This document shows, one piece after another, positions 179 to 12,827 of a DNA stretch of 17,408 nucleotides. Source of the DNA: a bacterium (GTDB lineage Bacteria; Electryoneota; Electryoneia; Electryoneales; Electryoneaceae); NCBI GenBank assembly GCA_043801585.1, contig JAZDLX010000150.1:1-17408 (forward strand), in the 5' to 3' direction. The position numbers and the translations under genes were made by a program. The notes under the pieces are model-generated. The model was not told the DNA's origin, searched no databases, and saw only the letters and a program-made list of their open reading frames with translations. The first letter of the stretch is position 1. The number at the start of each line of letters is the position of its first letter.

Positions 179-310
179 TTATACCCCTATTCCCGCCAAC
201 ACTCCAACCTGATAAATAACTACCGACAGACCATAGGCGAGAATCAGCGTGTACAGAGCAAGGAAGGCACTCCATTTCCAGGTGCCCAGCTCTTTGCGGA
301 CAACGGTCGT
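179..310 (-). pseudogene. feoB: Stranded 3' fragment of feoB (last TM helix and C-terminus)
   Basis: Translates as TTVVRKELGTWKWSAFLALYTLILAYGLSVVIYQVGVLAGIGV* (TAA at 179-181). Nearly identical to the FeoB tail at 2857-2953. No start codon; in-frame TGA at 311-313. Confidence 0.9.
210..306. repeat. Direct repeat copy A (feoB tail), distal boundary of the cassette
   Basis: Aligns ungapped to 2857-2953 (offset 2647) with 9 mismatches in 97 bp. Positions 243-295 match 2890-2942 perfectly (53 bp). Confidence 0.95.
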
Positions 311-331
311 TCAATACTCGTTATTCATATC

Positions 332-751
332 CTAATATATGTTACATTGTTTAAACGTATCAAGAAGACGTCTTTCCACTTCTTTTATGTTTCTTAATTC
401 GCATTCCCAGACAATAATAACACAATATCCAAGTTCTTTTAACTTCTTTATGTTTTCTTCATCTCGTGTTCTATTTCTATTTATTTTCTCATTCCAATAT
501 TTCTTATTTGTTTTCGGCCTGTTTTTCCCATGCTTACAATCATGTCCATGCCAAAAACACCCATGGACAAATATTGCTATTTTTTGAGTTTTATTCGCTA
601 TATCTGGTTTTCCTGGTAAATCTACAACATTAACCCTGTATCTAAATCCTTGACGCCAAAGTATGGATCTCACTTCTTTTTCTATAGATGTGTTTTCTGA
701 AGACACCGAACTCATTGCCTTCTTTCTATCTTGGATAGATAAGTTGTCCAT
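332..751 (-). CDS. vsr: Very short patch repair endonuclease Vsr
   Basis: MDNLSIQDRKKAMSSV..ENT..E, LPGKPDI, AIFVHGCFWHGHDC, YWNEKINRNRTRD and IVWECE are typical Vsr motifs. ATG at 751 follows the upstream stop (753-755) by 1 nt. Confidence 0.95.
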   Translation of the reverse strand: MDNLSIQDRKKAMSSVSSENTSIEKEVRSILWRQGFRYRVNVVDLPGKPDIANKTQKIAIFVHGCFWHGHDCKHGKNRPKTNKKYWNEKINRNRTRDEENIKKLKELGYCVIIVWECELRNIKEVERRLLDTFKQCNIY

Positions 752-752
752 T

Positions 753-1676
753 TTAGCGGATAACAATTTTTAAAGATGGATCGGTTTCACATTTTTCTAT
801 AAGTTCATTATACTTATCTATCATATCACTAATCGCTGCAGTACGACCTTTACGAATAAAATCACCCAATTCATGAATATTCGACGCCAAGAATTGTTCG
901 GCAGAGAACACATCAATGCGATCATTTATTCCAAAATTTTCAGCAAGACCAACAGCGATCGGTACACTGCGATCAACAGTCACTATTATTGGCCTAATAT
1001 CACGATCAATATTCGATCTACATTTTTCAATTAGACCTTCACTGGGTGCTGTCGTCACATGTATTGAAACATCTCCTATATAAAAATCTCCCGGCTTTCC
1101 AAGAGAATCATCTGCAGTCGAAAAGCTACTATGTTCAATTTTTATATCCTTTGTCACAAGCTCCAGTTTAGCTCCTACCATATGCTGAAGAACTGCTCCT
1201 ACATAGTTAGTTCCCGTAGATTCTTTTTGTCTCGCTTCCGCTTGCATGAGAATATCTTTAATAACAGCTCTAATACTAATAGAAGTATCTGTTTTTATCC
1301 TCATAGGCTTTGAAGAAAAATATTCCCTTACTTTACCTATCCAAAACTTCTCCACATCTTCCAAATCCACAGAACCAAAAGAATTTAATAGTGCTACATA
1401 CTTCTGCATATTACTGATGCTACCGCGACTAGTTCTCCCTCCTTCACTTGCCAATACTCTATTAATGTTATGTTTCTTTAAAATAGCTTGAACCGCGCTT
1501 TTCCCCAATCCGAGAACTTGGCCCCTTTTCTTCGTTAATAGTACTTCTGAATTCAAAGGCAGACCCATATCTTTTGCATGTTGTGTAACTACCAAAGCAA
1601 CTGACAATGGGCCTTTAGACAAGAATCTGTTATCCTTGCAAAACTTTGCAAGCTGTTGATCAAGCGATTTTTGCAT
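753..1676 (-). CDS. DUF4928-like protein, putative restriction endonuclease
   Basis: Motifs KGPLSVALVVT, GQVLGLG, LASEGGRTSRGS, GAVLQHMVGAKL and GDFYIGD..IHVT recalled as DUF4928. Lies between the C5 MTase and vsr. ATG at 1676 preferred over TTG at 1706. The nuclease role is inferred from context. Confidence 0.75.
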   Translation of the reverse strand: MQKSLDQQLAKFCKDNRFLSKGPLSVALVVTQHAKDMGLPLNSEVLLTKKRGQVLGLGKSAVQAILKKHNINRVLASEGGRTSRGSISNMQKYVALLNSFGSVDLEDVEKFWIGKVREYFSSKPMRIKTDTSISIRAVIKDILMQAEARQKESTGTNYVGAVLQHMVGAKLELVTKDIKIEHSSFSTADDSLGKPGDFYIGDVSIHVTTAPSEGLIEKCRSNIDRDIRPIIVTVDRSVPIAVGLAENFGINDRIDVFSAEQFLASNIHELGDFIRKGRTAAISDMIDKYNELIEKCETDPSLKIVIR

Positions 1677-2808
1677 GGCTCTTTTCGTCCAGTAATATGA
1701 GTTCAAAAATTTGTTCTTCTAGAAATCGAACAACTGGAACCACAACCCCGTCGCCTATTAGATAATATGCATCGTTGTAATTATCAGGGAGCTGGTAGTC
1801 CTCTGGTAATCCCATCAATCGTGCTGCTTCACGCGCAGTAAGTAATCTGGTCATCACTTGGTTGTCGTAAACTGCAATAATTGTTTGTCTGCTTGAACCA
1901 CCAGCGGGTGTTCTTAAACATCCAGCAACTCCATCAAATCTAACCTCAGCCCGCTGTAATCCGTTTCTTGTCCTGCGATACAACCCACCAACAATCGTTT
2001 TTCCTAAATTTTTCATAATTTTAACCTTCTTCAGGTTGATATCTGTCATCAAATCCAAGTAATGCTTCGTTTTTTCTTCATTATCCCAATCATTTCCGCT
2101 AAAATTAATAGATATAATATCTTTCAAGTCTTTATCTCTTTTAGGTGGCACAGGCAAATCCAACCAAAGCCATCTACTCATAACTTCGCTATCTTGGACT
2201 TTATATACTTCTTGTAATGACTTTGGATGCCACCTTTCTAAAGGTAACCTAGATAGAATTCTACCGGATTCAACAAGAAAATCTTGTATTGCGACAACAA
2301 AAAGCCTTTTTCTCGACTGCGGGACGAAAAGCTTTGCGTCAATTACAACCGGACCAATATAATACCCCAATTCGACCAATGATTTTAATATTGATGTAAA
2401 ATCCTTGCCTGAATGTGAAGTAATTGCACCAAGAACATTTTCAAGAACAATAATTTTGGGATTTCTATTTTCTCCCTTAAGCGACTTCATCAAATCATAA
2501 AAATACCAGTATGTGCCAGATCGATTACCACTTAATCCTGCGCCGTATCCTGCTAATGAAAGATCTTGACAAGGAAAAGACGCCCAAGCAAGATCTACTT
2601 TTCCTGGTAGTTCAGATACATGTAGTTCTTGAATGTTTTTAACAACTAGTTCGCTACTTCCCCAGTTGTTAATATATGATTTAGCTTTTTTGGGATCATT
2701 ATCGTTTGCAAACAGACATTTCCACTCGGGAGAGAGTGCGGCTCGCACCATTCCTCCTCCAGAGAAAAATTCGTAATATGTGTATGGCTGACTCAATGTT
2801 TTGCTCAT
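1660..2808 (-). CDS. DNA (cytosine-5)-methyltransferase
   Basis: Motif I EFFSGGG, motif IV ASFPCQDLS, motif VI LENV, motif VIII PQSRKRLF, motif IX RLLTAREAARLMGLP, motif X IGDGV. Start placed at ATG 2808 (MSKTLSQ) because the upstream ORF extension overlaps feoB. Confidence 0.95.
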   Translation of the reverse strand: MSKTLSQPYTYYEFFSGGGMVRAALSPEWKCLFANDNDPKKAKSYINNWGSSELVVKNIQELHVSELPGKVDLAWASFPCQDLSLAGYGAGLSGNRSGTYWYFYDLMKSLKGENRNPKIIVLENVLGAITSHSGKDFTSILKSLVELGYYIGPVVIDAKLFVPQSRKRLFVVAIQDFLVESGRILSRLPLERWHPKSLQEVYKVQDSEVMSRWLWLDLPVPPKRDKDLKDIISINFSGNDWDNEEKTKHYLDLMTDINLKKVKIMKNLGKTIVGGLYRRTRNGLQRAEVRFDGVAGCLRTPAGGSSRQTIIAVYDNQVMTRLLTAREAARLMGLPEDYQLPDNYNDAYYLIGDGVVVPVVRFLEEQIFELILLDEKSHAKIA

Positions 2809-2822
2809 GCGTTTTTTAGTTG

Positions 2823-5144
2823 CTAAAGTATCAGATTGTTGATGAGAATATATCCTTGATAGACCACCACCGCCAGCCCATAGGCGAGGATCAGCGTGTA
2901 CAGAGCAAGGAAGGCACTCCATTTCCAGGTGCCCAGCTCTTTCCTGACAACGGCGAGGGTGGCGATACAGGGCATATAGATCATTACGAACATCATCAAC
3001 GCCAGAGCCATGGCTGGACTGTAAGCGGAATCACCGGCGACCATCTCTCGCAGGTGAGGACGCGCTCCGTTTCCTCTCTGGCTCGCGTCCACATCCTCAA
3101 CACCATAAACAATCCCCATGGTCGAGATGATTACTTCTTTGGCGGCTGTTCCGCTGATCAGGGCGATCCCGATCTTCCAGTCGAATCCGGCGAACTTCAG
3201 TGCGGGTTCAAGCGCCCTGCCGATCCTTCCGGCATAGGAATGCTGCAGACGTTCGCTACGCAGCGTGGTCGTGTTGCTGCCGGTTAAGAGGACCGTTTGG
3301 GCGGAATTTACCGTTAGATCGGGGTTCACAAAATCACCACCAGGCACCACCGATATTCCCGTATCCATTGATGTTGTCTGGGGTGCCTGCGAATGGTTCC
3401 GGGGCAGGGACGGAAATGTCAGCAGGAACCAGATGACAAGGCTTGCGGCGAGAATGATCGTTCCCGCCTTGCGCAGATACAGTGCCCCACGCTCCCACAT
3501 GTGGGTCATCGCGCCTCGAATGGTGGGCATTCTGTAGGGAGGCAGTTCCATGACAAAAGGCGCAGCTTCACCCCGAAACATGGTTTTGCGGAACACCAGT
3601 GCCGTGAGGAACGCGATCAGCCATCCAGCCGCCCAAATCGCCCAGAAAACCAGCGCGCTGTGTTCGGTGAAAAAAGCCGCCGCCAGCATCGCGATAACCG
3701 GACTCTTCGCCCCGCACATCAGCAACGGCGTGACCAGCACCGTGATGATTCTGTCTCGCGGATTGACGAGCGTCCTTGCGCTCATGACGGCCGGGACCGC
3801 ACAACCGGTGGCGATCATGAAGGGAATGAACGACCGGCCGTGAAGGCCGAACAGGTGGAAAAAACGATCCATGACAAATGCGGCACGGGCCATATAACCG
3901 CTGTCCTCGAGCAGCGAGAGGGACAGGAACAGCAGCATCACGAGCGGGAAGAAAACCAGCACCCCGCCGACCCCACCGATGATGCCATCCACAAGCATAT
4001 TGCGCAACAGTCCGGCACGCATCACTGAGGTCAACAGCCTACCGAGTATGCTGAACCCGGAGTCGATCAGGTCCGAGAGAGGATTGCCCAGCGCAAAGGT
4101 AAACTGGTATACGAGAAACATGACTCCCAGGAAAATAAAAATCCCGCCGTAGCGATTCAGGGCGATTCTATCGATCATTTCGGTAAAATCGATTCGCTGC
4201 AGTTTGGTGCGATGTTGCACCGTCTCCCGCACGGCGCCGTGGATGTAGGCGTACCGTTGCTCCCCAACGACAACAGAGCTGTCCTCGTTGAAGTGTTTGC
4301 GAATCCACTCGCGTGCCCGGCTGGCCTCTTTGAGTACCTTTGTCGCCTGAAGGTGTTCGAGACGGATTTTCACTTCCGCGTCGGCGTCCCCTTCAAGCAA
4401 TTTGATTGCGAGCCAGTCGAGGGTATAGTGTTCGGCGAATTCTCCGTCCGTGAGGAGCTGCTCAAGAAGGCGCTGTCGCTGGCCCTCGAGCTCGCGGCCA
4501 TAGTCGATCCTGCGCTCGCCCGGTGTCCGGTCGCCTTTCGCGAAGTCAATGACCATATTTACCAGGTCTCGCACTCCACGACCCTTGTGTCCCACGGTTT
4601 TAACAAAGGGTATCCCGAGGATCGAACCGAGGTGCTCGGAGTCCACGTCGATTCCCATCTCCTCCGCTTCGTCCATCATGTTCAGAACGCCGACCACGGG
4701 GATGCCGAATTCCTGGAATTGAAGAAGCAGATAGAGGTTGCGTTCGAGGTTCGTTGAATCGAGCACGTCGACGATCAGGTCAGGTTGTTCACGGACGACA
4801 AAGTCACGAGTCACAACCTCCTCGAGGGAATAGGCAGTAAGGCTGTAGGTGCCCGGCAGGTCGACAAATTCGATCTGCAGGTCGTCGGTTTCAACGTATC
4901 CGACCTTTTTTTCGACGGTCACGCCCGGGTAATTGCCGATGTGCTGATGCTGTCCGGTTAGCGCATTGAAAATGCTTGTTTTACCGGCATTGGGGTTTCC
5001 GGCGAGAGCAACGATATACCGGCGCTTACCACCCCGCCCCCTTCCGCCAGGGGCGCCTTTCGCCCACGGACGAATCTCGGTGTCGAGCCGAAAAAACCGT
5101 TCACGAAACCAGCGACGCTCAGGTCTCTGTACCCGCTCACGCAT
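2823..5144 (-). CDS. feoB: Ferrous iron transport protein B
   Basis: G1 GNPNAGKT, G2 NYPGVTVE, G3 DLPGTYSL, G4 NMMD; membrane-domain motifs EDSGYMARAAF, FVMELPPY, AAKE and PCIAT. Confidence 0.97.
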   Translation of the reverse strand: MRERVQRPERRWFRERFFRLDTEIRPWAKGAPGGRGRGGKRRYIVALAGNPNAGKTSIFNALTGQHQHIGNYPGVTVEKKVGYVETDDLQIEFVDLPGTYSLTAYSLEEVVTRDFVVREQPDLIVDVLDSTNLERNLYLLLQFQEFGIPVVGVLNMMDEAEEMGIDVDSEHLGSILGIPFVKTVGHKGRGVRDLVNMVIDFAKGDRTPGERRIDYGRELEGQRQRLLEQLLTDGEFAEHYTLDWLAIKLLEGDADAEVKIRLEHLQATKVLKEASRAREWIRKHFNEDSSVVVGEQRYAYIHGAVRETVQHRTKLQRIDFTEMIDRIALNRYGGIFIFLGVMFLVYQFTFALGNPLSDLIDSGFSILGRLLTSVMRAGLLRNMLVDGIIGGVGGVLVFFPLVMLLFLSLSLLEDSGYMARAAFVMDRFFHLFGLHGRSFIPFMIATGCAVPAVMSARTLVNPRDRIITVLVTPLLMCGAKSPVIAMLAAAFFTEHSALVFWAIWAAGWLIAFLTALVFRKTMFRGEAAPFVMELPPYRMPTIRGAMTHMWERGALYLRKAGTIILAASLVIWFLLTFPSLPRNHSQAPQTTSMDTGISVVPGGDFVNPDLTVNSAQTVLLTGSNTTTLRSERLQHSYAGRIGRALEPALKFAGFDWKIGIALISGTAAKEVIISTMGIVYGVEDVDASQRGNGARPHLREMVAGDSAYSPAMALALMMFVMIYMPCIATLAVVRKELGTWKWSAFLALYTLILAYGLAVVVYQGYILINNLIL
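2857..2953. repeat. Direct repeat copy B (inside the current feoB 3' end), proximal boundary of the cassette
   Basis: Matches 210-306 as described for copy A. Confidence 0.95.
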
Positions 5145-6132
5145 CGAGCTCCTCCACCACCACGCAACTCGCCTCAGATCGTCTCATCGAAAGCAGGGAA
5201 CCGTTGATCTGGATCTCGATGGGATCTCGGAGGAGCGCTTCACGAAGAATCCGTCCCTCTGCGCCACGAATAAATCCCATGTCGGTCATTCGTTGACGGA
5301 TTTCTCCTGTGGCGGTGATGCGCACAACGCGGAAAGAACGTCCGGGAGTGATGTCTGCGAGAGTCCTGCGGTGCCATGTCTTTGCGGAATGCGGTTCTGC
5401 AATCGCCTCCTCCCGCCAGACAAGGATCGATGCCGCTGTCGCTGGATCCAGTGTCAATGTTTCTCCTGCGACAACCGCTTCCACGCTGCCGTCCGGATTC
5501 CGCTGAACAAGCCTCACCGAGGCACTCGTGTGCAGTCCGTTGCGTACCGCCGATTGCCGCTGTTCTTCCTCGCCGACGATACGGGCAATGTAGCCCGCCT
5601 CGCCCCGCCCCAGCTGTGACAGGGGCTTGATCGCCCCCTTTGAAGCCCCGGGAACCTGAGCGGACGAGGCACCCCGTTTCCGTGTCTTCTCCAGGTATCC
5701 CAGCCAATCTCCGCTGAACTTCTTCACGAGGTCACGGTCTACTTTTCCGGAATAGGTGAGGAATTGCGACATCGAGGAAATGCGCTCGAGGGTCTCCACG
5801 CTGATCGTGTGTTCCATTGAGCAGGCGTCCCGTTCCGCAGTATCAGGATCGACCTGGAGGAAATCCGTAAGGAATCGTTTGAGGAAGGTATGACGTTGGA
5901 AAAGGCGGAAACCCAGGCTGCGTCCCTCTTCGGTAAGATCTACATATTCACGCTGCCGGTATACAACCAACCCCTTACGGTCAAGCCGCTGGAGTGCGGA
6001 AATTACTGAGGACGTTTTGACATCCTTGATCTTCGCGATATCCCGGACACGAACAACGTCCCGGTTCTGAAGCAGGCGGAAGATGACCTCAAGATAGTCT
6101 TCGAGGCTCTCCGTCAGGCGACCGACCTGCAT
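5137..6132 (-). CDS. DtxR/MntR-family metalloregulator fused to two FeoA (SH3-like) domains
   Basis: N-terminal LTESLEDYLE wHTH, RH..L..FL and ERDACSMEH. FeoA-like repeat 1 starts PLSQLGRGEAGYIARI. Canonical FeoA repeat 2 reads TLADITPG..RQRMTDMGF..DPIEIQING..LSMRRSEA. Its stop overlaps the feoB start. Confidence 0.9.
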   Translation of the reverse strand: MQVGRLTESLEDYLEVIFRLLQNRDVVRVRDIAKIKDVKTSSVISALQRLDRKGLVVYRQREYVDLTEEGRSLGFRLFQRHTFLKRFLTDFLQVDPDTAERDACSMEHTISVETLERISSMSQFLTYSGKVDRDLVKKFSGDWLGYLEKTRKRGASSAQVPGASKGAIKPLSQLGRGEAGYIARIVGEEEQRQSAVRNGLHTSASVRLVQRNPDGSVEAVVAGETLTLDPATAASILVWREEAIAEPHSAKTWHRRTLADITPGRSFRVVRITATGEIRQRMTDMGFIRGAEGRILREALLRDPIEIQINGSLLSMRRSEASCVVVEELDA

Positions 6133-6731: not shown

Positions 6732-7421
6732 ATGAACCGACGTTTGACATTGACCCTGACGCTGGTGCTTGCACTGGGAATGGTCGCGGTGACAGGCTGC
6801 CAGAAGAAACCGCCAAAGGGCGCGCAACAGGTGCAGGCGGACCAGCAGAGAACTCCTCAGGAAGATGGAGCCGCCCCGGTCGCTGCTGATGGCACGGTTA
6901 CGGTAGGATCGCTGACCGCCATGCTGCCTGCAGGGTGGCAGTCCGTTGCTCCGTCTGCCCCGATGCGCAAGGCGGAACTTCTGATTCCGAACGTGAACAG
7001 GGACGGGATTCCCGGCTTCATCACAGTGTTCTATTTCGGTCCGCAGGCTGGAAGCGTGGATATGAACATCGAACGTTGGGCCGGGCAGTTTGAGCAAACG
7101 AACGGTCAACCGTTGACAGAAAAGATGGTAAAACGCAAAACGTTCATGGCGAATGGTCTCAAGGTAACCCTGGTTTCCTTCACCGGAACACAACGCCCTT
7201 CACAGATGCCCGGTGGCGCCCAGATGCACCCGATGAAGAAATTCATGAACATCTCCGGCATTGTCTTGACTCCCGAGGGCCCCTGGTTCTTCAAGGGCAC
7301 CGGTCCCGAGAAGTTGATGAAGGCGAACAAGTCTGGCTTCAAGTCCTTCCTTTCGAGCATGGTTTACCATGGCTCGGAGGCAGTCAACCCAAGTTCTGAT
7401 ACGCAAAGCATGGGAAACTGA
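6732..7421 (+). CDS. Lipoprotein of unknown function
   Basis: GGAG RBS at 6721-6724. Signal MNRRLTLTLTLVLALGMVAVTGC with lipobox, a low-complexity linker, then a globular domain with GSVDMNIERWAGQF and GPWFFKGTGP. Confidence 0.8.
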   Translation: MNRRLTLTLTLVLALGMVAVTGCQKKPPKGAQQVQADQQRTPQEDGAAPVAADGTVTVGSLTAMLPAGWQSVAPSAPMRKAELLIPNVNRDGIPGFITVFYFGPQAGSVDMNIERWAGQFEQTNGQPLTEKMVKRKTFMANGLKVTLVSFTGTQRPSQMPGGAQMHPMKKFMNISGIVLTPEGPWFFKGTGPEKLMKANKSGFKSFLSSMVYHGSEAVNPSSDTQSMGN

Positions 7422-11433: not shown

Positions 11434-11668
11434 TCGCTTCCGTTTTCAAGTCCCGTGTCCATGCAGCCTACGTCAAGATGCAGTACGGTTCTCCGCGGCG
11501 CAACCATTCACCGGATTGCGGCTCATCCTGCCGATATCGGAGGATTTTGCCTGTCTGAACAACCAAATGGTATCACCGGGAAAGAGTATAATCATCAAAA
11601 CACCAACACAATCCCTTAATAAACAGTAATAAATAAAACATGCTTTGGCAATGCGACAATTCCGGAAA

Positions 11669-11716: not shown

Positions 11717-12154
11717 ATGCCGGAAAACAAAGTTTACGAATTCATCTTTCGGCGTCTGGACGGAATGATCCCGCTGCGCAAGGGTCTGGACGCCTATGCC
11801 ATGCGCCAGAAAGCGATTGCGTCCAACATCGCGAACTCCGAAACTCCGGGGTACGTCGCTAAGAAGGTCTCTTTTGAAGAGCAGCTCTCGAAAGTACTCA
11901 GCAAACAGAGCAGCGGATTGATCAGAACCTCCGGCGACCACATCCCGATTCGCGGTGGTCTTCGTGCGATGGACAATGTACAGGCCATAGTTGAGGATGC
12001 CGGTACGCCTGCCAATTACAACGGTGTCAATAACGTGGACATCGAGAAAGAGATGGGCGAACTGGCGACCAACCAGATCGATTTCGCCGCAGCGACCAAG
12101 ATTATGGGGATCCGTTTCAGAATGATCAAAAGCGCCATCATGGGTCATAGTTGA
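11717..12154 (+). CDS. flgB: Flagellar basal-body rod protein FlgB
   Basis: LDAYAMRQKAIASNIANSETPGYVAKKVSFEEQL, RTSGDHI, NNVDIEKEMGELATNQI and IKSAI. Confidence 0.95.
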   Translation: MPENKVYEFIFRRLDGMIPLRKGLDAYAMRQKAIASNIANSETPGYVAKKVSFEEQLSKVLSKQSSGLIRTSGDHIPIRGGLRAMDNVQAIVEDAGTPANYNGVNNVDIEKEMGELATNQIDFAAATKIMGIRFRMIKSAIMGHS

Positions 12155-12234: not shown

Positions 12235-12699
12235 TTACGAATTCTCTATCCCGGAGTGGAACGCTTTCAGGAATCCCTTGTAATCGTTACCGTTCACTTC
12301 CGTCTGGCGAAGGAAATCCAGAAACAGTTCGAAGCGTTGGGTGGTTTCATCGCTGATCAGATGCTCCACCTTGCACGCATCGTCTTCCGCCTGCTCTTCG
12401 TTTAACCTGAGAATATCCGTAAAAAAAGAGCGTAACAGCTTGTGCCTGCGATAGATCTCCTCTGCTGTGTGACGGCCTTTGTCTGTCAGTTCGATGTCTC
12501 CGTACTTCTGATGGAGAACCAGGCCTCGATCCTGCAGAACCGAGAGAGCTTCGGTAACTGATGGTTTTGAGACTCCCATGGCGTCGGCAATGTTCTTAAC
12601 CTTCGCGGTCAGCCCTTCGATGTCCTGGAGGTAGATCGTCTCCAGGTAATCCTCCATGTTCGGGCTGAGATCCGACTGCCTTGGCTTGTGAGGTGACAT
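12235..12699 (-). CDS. DtxR/MntR-family metal-dependent repressor (short form, no FeoA domain)
   Basis: LSPNMEDYLETIY, IADAMGVSKPSVTEAL, YGDIELTDKG, IYRRHKLLRSFF, AEDDACKVEH. GGAGG RBS precedes ATG 12699. Confidence 0.92.
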   Translation of the reverse strand: MSPHKPRQSDLSPNMEDYLETIYLQDIEGLTAKVKNIADAMGVSKPSVTEALSVLQDRGLVLHQKYGDIELTDKGRHTAEEIYRRHKLLRSFFTDILRLNEEQAEDDACKVEHLISDETTQRFELFLDFLRQTEVNGNDYKGFLKAFHSGIENS

Positions 12700-12795
12700 C
12701 CCGTGTCCTCCGACCGAATGCGCGATCCGTCTATTTCCGCCGTGCGCGTATCCGGGATCCTCCCCCCTGCAGAGGTCCTCGAGCACAACGATGTT

Positions 12796-12827
12796 GTTTG
12801 CTTGGCCAAACGGATAGGCCAATCTAA
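12796..12827. promoter_or_regulatory. Tandem DtxR-family operator-like palindromes
   Basis: Minus strand TTAG-ATTGGC-CTAT (12827-12814) and GTTTG-GCCAAG-CAAAC (12811-12796), both with a 6-bp spacer like the 6142-6159 box. Confidence 0.6.

Follow-up and report, generated by a model that had tools for sequence, protein, structure and literature searches.

How did a small group of A+T-rich genes come to lie between two copies of the end of feoB without an integrase of its own? The question is raised by the contig JAZDLX010000150.1 (assembly GCA_043801585.1) from a bacterium of the Electryoneaceae, whose whole stretch of 17,408 nucleotides was analysed and is called the window here. G000 denotes the genome of the window and G001 a sister species of the same genus with about 75% identical DNA; all features of the feoB locus lie on the minus strand. 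The feoB gene (2823-5144) is intact, encodes 773 amino acids, scores above the cut-off of TIGR00437 and is present as a single copy in the assembly. One copy of a 97-bp direct repeat lies within feoB (2857-2953) and the other (210-306) lies downstream, in an orphan feoB tail (179-310) whose open frame ends in YGLSVVIYQVGVLAGIGV and a stop codon. The 2,550 bp between the repeat copies (307-2856) are low-GC (guanine plus cytosine) inserted cargo without a recombinase. The reading favoured here, at a probability of roughly 0.65, is that a donor fragment consisting of a feoB end and the cargo module came from a close relative, was circularised, and was integrated by one homologous crossover in the core of the repeat.

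The two repeat copies differ at 9 positions and share a perfect core of 53 bp (243-295 and 2890-2942), with 2 differing bases on the 5' side of the core and 7 on the 3' side. In the feoB frame, 7 of the 9 differences are at synonymous positions and the other 2 exchange Ser for Ala and Ile for Val. An extra synonymous change (CAG/CAA) is found just beyond the repeat, and both alternative residues are known from close FeoB relatives (Ser in the protein P0122, Ile in G001). GC content is 37% in the region 311-2822 compared to 57% in feoB and 56% in the genome. A first-pass annotation made from the sequence alone had reported the repeat, its core, the synonymous or conservative nature of its differences and the A+T-richness of the cassette, and recomputed coordinates and base composition agree with it on all of these points. 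The repeat is present as two copies only in the 3.28-Mb assembly, both cassette junctions are unique sequence, and the cassette is without short multi-copy repeats.

Comparison to G001 indicates which of the two tails is the native one. The feoB gene of G001 has a single tail ending in YQGAVLFGLGV, and 138 bp further on lies the S9 prolyl oligopeptidase gene, the counterpart of the one whose 5' part is found at 1-65 of the window (Pfam Peptidase_S9). This gene, the native downstream neighbor of feoB, is syntenic in G001 and continues onto contig C206 through a 141-bp overlap; both flanks of the feoB locus are syntenic with G001. The first-pass annotation had suggested looking for an empty site in related genomes, and G001, as a sister species, provides one, with no cassette between feoB and the peptidase gene. 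The orphan tail ends in YQVGVLAGIGV at the same position as the G001 gene, and a FeoB C-terminal profile aligned to it over 40 residues, almost to the stop. The orphan is therefore the displaced native-type feoB end. It is not the remnant of a full-length feoB paralog present in this assembly, which contains one feoB only; a decayed paralog had been named as an alternative earlier. The feoB-borne copy aligned to the profile over 36 residues and is homologous only up to VYQG, which leaves 33 homologous bases past the core. The replacement end GYILINNLIL (2823-2856) is A+T-rich and could not be aligned to FeoB ends past the Gly, and its last nine codons (YILINNLIL) fall outside the profile alignment. 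These codons may have a distant feoB origin; a few distant FeoB proteins have longer hydrophobic ends.

The differences between the copies resemble those between two coding alleles and not those of one decayed duplicate. Duplication within the host was simulated under six settings with 1,500 runs each, the gene copy then being kept under selection while the orphan decayed neutrally. For feoB, the probability of at most two amino-acid changes was 0.008-0.034, and that of a core at least 53 bp long was ≤ 0.003. When ten loci of the same architecture (described below) were pooled, there were 58 synonymous and 32 non-synonymous differences between copies (dN/dS 0.13), a pattern reached by 0 of the 1,500 simulations in each of the six settings. 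This suggests, as had been proposed from the sequence, that both tail copies evolved as coding feoB, since simulated decay rarely gives so few amino-acid changes or so long a core.

The most useful addition of this analysis is a three-allele mosaic at an aldehyde dehydrogenase-like locus, a label that comes from sequence and not from a family scan. The same assembly holds a filled allele (C18:1-6760, locus L137), with 6.4 kb of cargo including a sensor kinase and regulator, and an empty allele (C149:1-432), and the C149 DNA downstream of the gene is 96% identical to the DNA after the C18 orphan. When the C18 orphan was compared to the empty allele, 9 differences were found in its first 63 bases (8 synonymous codons and 1 that is not) and only 1 in the next 150. 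When the incoming tail was compared to the same allele, it was identical for 101 bases and had 6 differences, all in the last 49. On either side of a common core, the orphan has donor-type sequence in its 5' part and the gene has it in its 3' part, so that the tails are reciprocal mosaics of donor and host, as a single crossover with a circular fragment predicts. Having the donor tail, the host tail and the empty allele in one assembly separates single-crossover integration from host-only target duplication. The feoB layout resembles this locus in that differing bases lie on both sides of a perfect core. The first-pass annotation had proposed that a feoB tail from a related lineage integrated by a single crossover; the mosaic expected of a single crossover is seen directly at C18/C149 and would apply at feoB by resemblance, with the amendment that the replacement tail is only partly feoB-derived.

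The same architecture is found throughout the genome. A scan of 2,795 called G000 genes for nearby orphan copies of a gene tail, head or middle found 10 tails downstream, 1 tail upstream, 2 heads upstream, 1 head downstream and no mid-gene copies. The set of ten analysed here consists of feoB and nine others, after C113 was dropped as a chance match and C18, which is cut by the contig start, was added by hand. The duplications range from 35 to 213 bp, and at the nine other loci the repeat ends within 8 bases of the stop or just past it in eight cases and 6 bases before it at C18. The anchor genes include those for acetate kinase, a cytochrome c assembly protein, an S46 peptidase, an XRE regulator, a GNAT protein and an FkbM methyltransferase. 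All nine non-feoB scars bracket unrelated, non-restriction cargo, including a Fic protein, a sensor kinase pair, a subtilase and an IS200-like open reading frame (ORF), and no tyrosine-recombinase match was found in any of the 10 intervals tested. Since the same scar surrounds non-restriction cargo, restriction activity is not needed to form it. Nine loci were compared to G001, which was empty with the flanks close together at five (feoB, C208, C86, C21 and C67) and was without cargo at C181, where the far flank was not found; C42 was cut by a contig end, and the C18 cargo was on another G001 contig. The displaced-tail architecture is thus genome-wide, with about ten scars, and likely reflects homologous recombination and not an integrase. 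Applied to 1.55 Mb of the roughly 3.3 Mb of G001, the same scan yielded 1 scar, and it yielded none in 0.4 Mb each of G013 and G021; these samples are too small to fix a rate.

Several further observations were made on such loci. The G001 scar (L170:8675-13100) is a displaced tail behind a 574-amino-acid gene with 2.6 kb between, and G000 is without the insert. Eight further displaced-tail loci were recorded (L128 and L130-L136); the cargos of C208, C67 and C42 have short repeats that are multi-copy in G001, and the IS200-like ORF lies in the C208 cargo. At L137, a 94-bp repeat of a partial tRNA-Ser(TGA) and flanking DNA (6924-7017 and 11553-11646) surrounds 4.5 kb of genes, and an integrase was not seen in the ORF list of that interval.

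The favoured mechanism would begin with a fragment cut about 130 bases before the feoB stop, carrying the module and presumably closed into a circle. One crossover, accompanied by conversion, would then have taken place in the 53-bp core; we infer its dependence on RecA as well as the route of entry. In the orphan, the short stretch on the 5' side of the core would then stem from the donor, as would the 33 bases that follow the core on its 3' side in feoB. The last nine codons of feoB, which are not homologous, would go back to an earlier illegitimate joining event in the donor lineage. A gene would stay whole under its own promoter only after events at its 3' end, which could account for the bias to gene tails. 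A laboratory counterpart exists: in E. coli, DNA with homology at one end that had been trimmed and recircularised gave lacZ-end duplications of 109-950 bp in 56 of 60 clones in a RecA-dependent manner (Amarir-Bouhram et al. 2011, PMC3240628). As here, there was no integrase and a variable stretch of the 3' end of the target gene was duplicated; however, those events involved a laboratory plasmid and identical homology in E. coli, whereas the events described here are natural, with 35-213-bp duplications of diverged alleles (PMC3240628). The genes comEC and dprA are present in G000, but matches to them in 10 of 14 control genomes make this weak evidence. Based on the shared strand and the 14-base gap to feoB, it is plausible that the module rides the feoAB-peptidase transcript. 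Promoter and terminator matches in the locus were not above shuffled sequences, junction hairpins were weak (-1.6 to -4.3 kcal/mol), and a search with a dif consensus found no similar motif in the genome.

Several caveats weigh against this reading. RecA would have only a short anchor to work on, 97 bp with 91% identity. The mosaic at feoB is deduced from just two bases 5' of the core, the empty site used for comparison belongs to another species, and the feoB junctions are known from the assembly alone. The aldehyde dehydrogenase-like locus was added by hand, with its 5' copy cut by the contig start. The C11 cargo is common to both G000 and G001 while the orphan is missing in G001, which a single simple insertion does not explain. 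Finally, polarity relative to G001 was uninformative (41 differences gene-like, 34 orphan-like and 13 neither).

The cargo comprises three co-oriented genes. A C5-cytosine DNA methyltransferase of 382 amino acids (1660-2808; PF00145, TIGR00675, PADLOC MTase_II/DruM2) starts 14 bases past the feoB stop and has all of the motifs PCQ, ENV and QxRxR. Next is a DUF4928 protein of 307 amino acids (753-1676; PF16280), a predicted type II restriction endonuclease (PADLOC REase_II, E 1e-42), and then vsr (332-766, with an uncertain start codon at 706-766), encoding a very-short-patch repair endonuclease above the cut-offs of PF03852 and TIGR00632. No solved structure matched DUF4928 by sequence, and its structure model (pLDDT 79) is nearest to EcoT38I, with weak but consistent scores (Foldseek best match, E 2e-3; by VIA, Z 10.2, root-mean-square deviation 15.0 and 279 aligned residues). 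The invariant residues in the predicted nuclease core are D197, D202, H206, T208 and E213, among which the lysine of the usual (D/E)xK motif is apparently absent. The cargo is probably a full type II restriction-modification module, and a widespread and mobile one. The first-pass description of an integrase-free methylase cassette was right about the methylase but omitted the DUF4928 and Vsr genes. It was also right about the integrase: family profile searches found no recombinase among the three ORFs, and tblastn with the XerD of the window (TIGR02225 above cut-off), which is encoded 7 kb outside the cassette, found no match within it.

In total, 2,955 DUF4928 relatives were found, and the module elsewhere has the same neighbors as here, with an adjacent methylase at 79 of 82 loci and vsr at 60 of 82. 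It is on 25 plasmid records, and a dcm-DUF4928-vsr module is mentioned in SGI1-related islands (PMC9035990). DUF4928 was found in only 1 of 79 genomes of the phylum and in no phage records, and a single-protein genome scan gave just 2 loci, both distant. Flanking direct repeats were found at 3 of the 36 module loci with both flanks longer than 1 kb. As separate observations, a related module (L094:5341-10175) lies between 145-bp repeats that are 90% identical and adjoins a tyrosine recombinase gene, and two other vsr-bearing contigs of G000 (C50 and C70, 58% GC) are 84% identical over 2.7 kb. An analysis of palindrome avoidance did not indicate a recognition site; G000 as a whole strongly avoids CTAG (0.20 of expected) and CAGCTG (0.37).

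The possibility that feoB is a hotspot, raised by the first-pass annotation, is not supported. The tail peptide was matched in 54 of 79 genomes of the phylum, and two copies were found only in G000 and in 0 of the 53 others, a set that includes a single genome of the same genus and many incomplete ones. The DUF4928 module was beside feoB at none of the 82 loci, and a degenerate feoB-tail pattern had no matches in metagenomes. The nearest FeoB in the protein collection is 67% identical over the last 214 residues, and a limited literature search found no paper describing feoB as such an integration target. With nine other genes scarred likewise, feoB does not appear to be a special target or hotspot.

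Other origins of the cassette have to be weighed against a single crossover. It could be a decayed or trans-mobilised site-specific element of the e14/icd or CIME kind, whose attachment site rebuilt the feoB end and whose integrase was lost or is encoded elsewhere. The 5' edge of the repeat has an 8-bp match, which is the size of a tyrosine-recombinase overlap, and other tyrosine recombinases are present in G000. The ends also have the same structure as icd and icdC around prophage e14, where the incoming end completes a core gene, a displaced C-terminal fragment lies downstream, and the differences in that fragment are silent and conservative (PMC13626634). However, e14 is a 15-kb prophage that excises (PMC13626634), and the ten unrelated target genes here would need ten specificities. 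Moreover, e14 encodes its own integrase, whereas no recombinase remnant was found in the 2.55 kb or the other cargo intervals, and only 7 of the 82 module loci had a tyrosine-recombinase match. The absence of a second feoB-tail duplication in the 53 other genomes and of any feoB-tail pattern in viral contigs also argues against this origin, which we regard as unlikely. Slightly less credit still is given to homology-facilitated illegitimate recombination (HFIR), or two-flank recombination from an already scarred donor, with the crossover upstream in feoB. On that view, the feoB copy would come entirely from the donor, and the orphan would be entirely of host or older origin. Such events would give the same synonymous-biased pair and have been proposed for displaced tails of rhs/type VI secretion system (T6SS) arrays (PMC5361080), and an existing scar is likely to spread secondarily through its flanks. 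True HFIR in E. coli was, however, a minority product with deletions, the duplications coming from single crossovers (PMC3240628). It also counts against this origin that the 5' part of the aldehyde dehydrogenase-like orphan is not host-type, and that a perfect core of 53 bp next to a zone of 79% identity would require conversion or repeated transfer.

A third possibility is a long target duplication made entirely within the host, by repair induced by restriction cleavage, after which the gene copy stayed under selection while the orphan decayed neutrally. It would give a simple account of a repeat that stops 34 bases short of the stop codon. Restriction-modification genes have been described with such duplications, in which the repeat copies match at as few as 83/96 and 89/95 positions (PMC2853133). 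Nevertheless, the simulations above yielded too many amino-acid changes, both at feoB and pooled, and too short a core, and the nine other scars bracket non-restriction cargo; this explanation is therefore considered improbable. Least probable is an artefact of assembly, a chimera joining either two strains or an empty chromosome with a free circle. The assembly does mix strains, as the filled and empty alleles at C18/C149 show, and the contig breaks 37 bases past the orphan. However, at 53 bp the core is well below the length of the contig overlaps, 141 bases (found at 161 of 450 contig ends), and should have been within reach of the assembler; the syntenic flanks and unique junctions likewise speak against a chimera.

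The feoB locus is real and well explained, and it is an ordinary defence islet of a kind of insertion that is already known. Restriction-modification insertions with long target duplications are established, as the first-pass annotation had stated, and they have been catalogued, imperfect repeats included (Furuta, Abe, Kobayashi 2010, PMC2853133). Shared with that catalogue are methylase and restriction homologs without a mobility gene, an insert of less than 20 kb, a unique direct repeat of more than 30 bp with imperfect identity in the same range, an empty site in a relative, and an intact target gene in an operon-like run. There are also differences: the copies here differ as two coding alleles, the repeat stops before the stop codon, which gives the gene a replaced end, and scars of this kind also enclose non-restriction cargo. 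That study leaves the mechanism open (PMC2853133), and the three-allele mosaic bears on it. In rhs/T6SS arrays an incoming module is likewise anchored in a conserved gene, whose former 3' end is shifted downstream, but those are toxin-domain tips in stacked arrays, whereas the events here are single and affect the ends of housekeeping genes (Kirchberger et al. 2017, PMC5361080). The feoB locus is a clean natural example of island addition without an integrase and without breaking a core gene, and if it is general, displaced gene tails would be an easy marker for islets missed by integrase-based island finders. A broader and much more tentative idea is that, within the population of this uncultured lineage, accessory and defence genes circulate as small non-replicating circles, each made of a gene end and cargo, which insert where core genes have their 3' ends. 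In this form, the exchange would be integrase-free, with about three scars per Mb and coexisting filled and empty alleles, a picture that we hold equally tentatively. It could possibly involve a dedicated host route, for example hairpin-cutting nucleases or a gene-transfer-agent-like particle.

Other genes of the window were also recorded. Directly upstream of feoB is a gene for a DtxR/MntR-type repressor fused to two FeoA domains (5137-6132), which is conserved in G001, and a second DtxR-like gene is located at 12235-12822. A flgB-like flagellar basal-body rod gene (11717-12154) is the lone flagellar gene among the scanned ORFs of the window.

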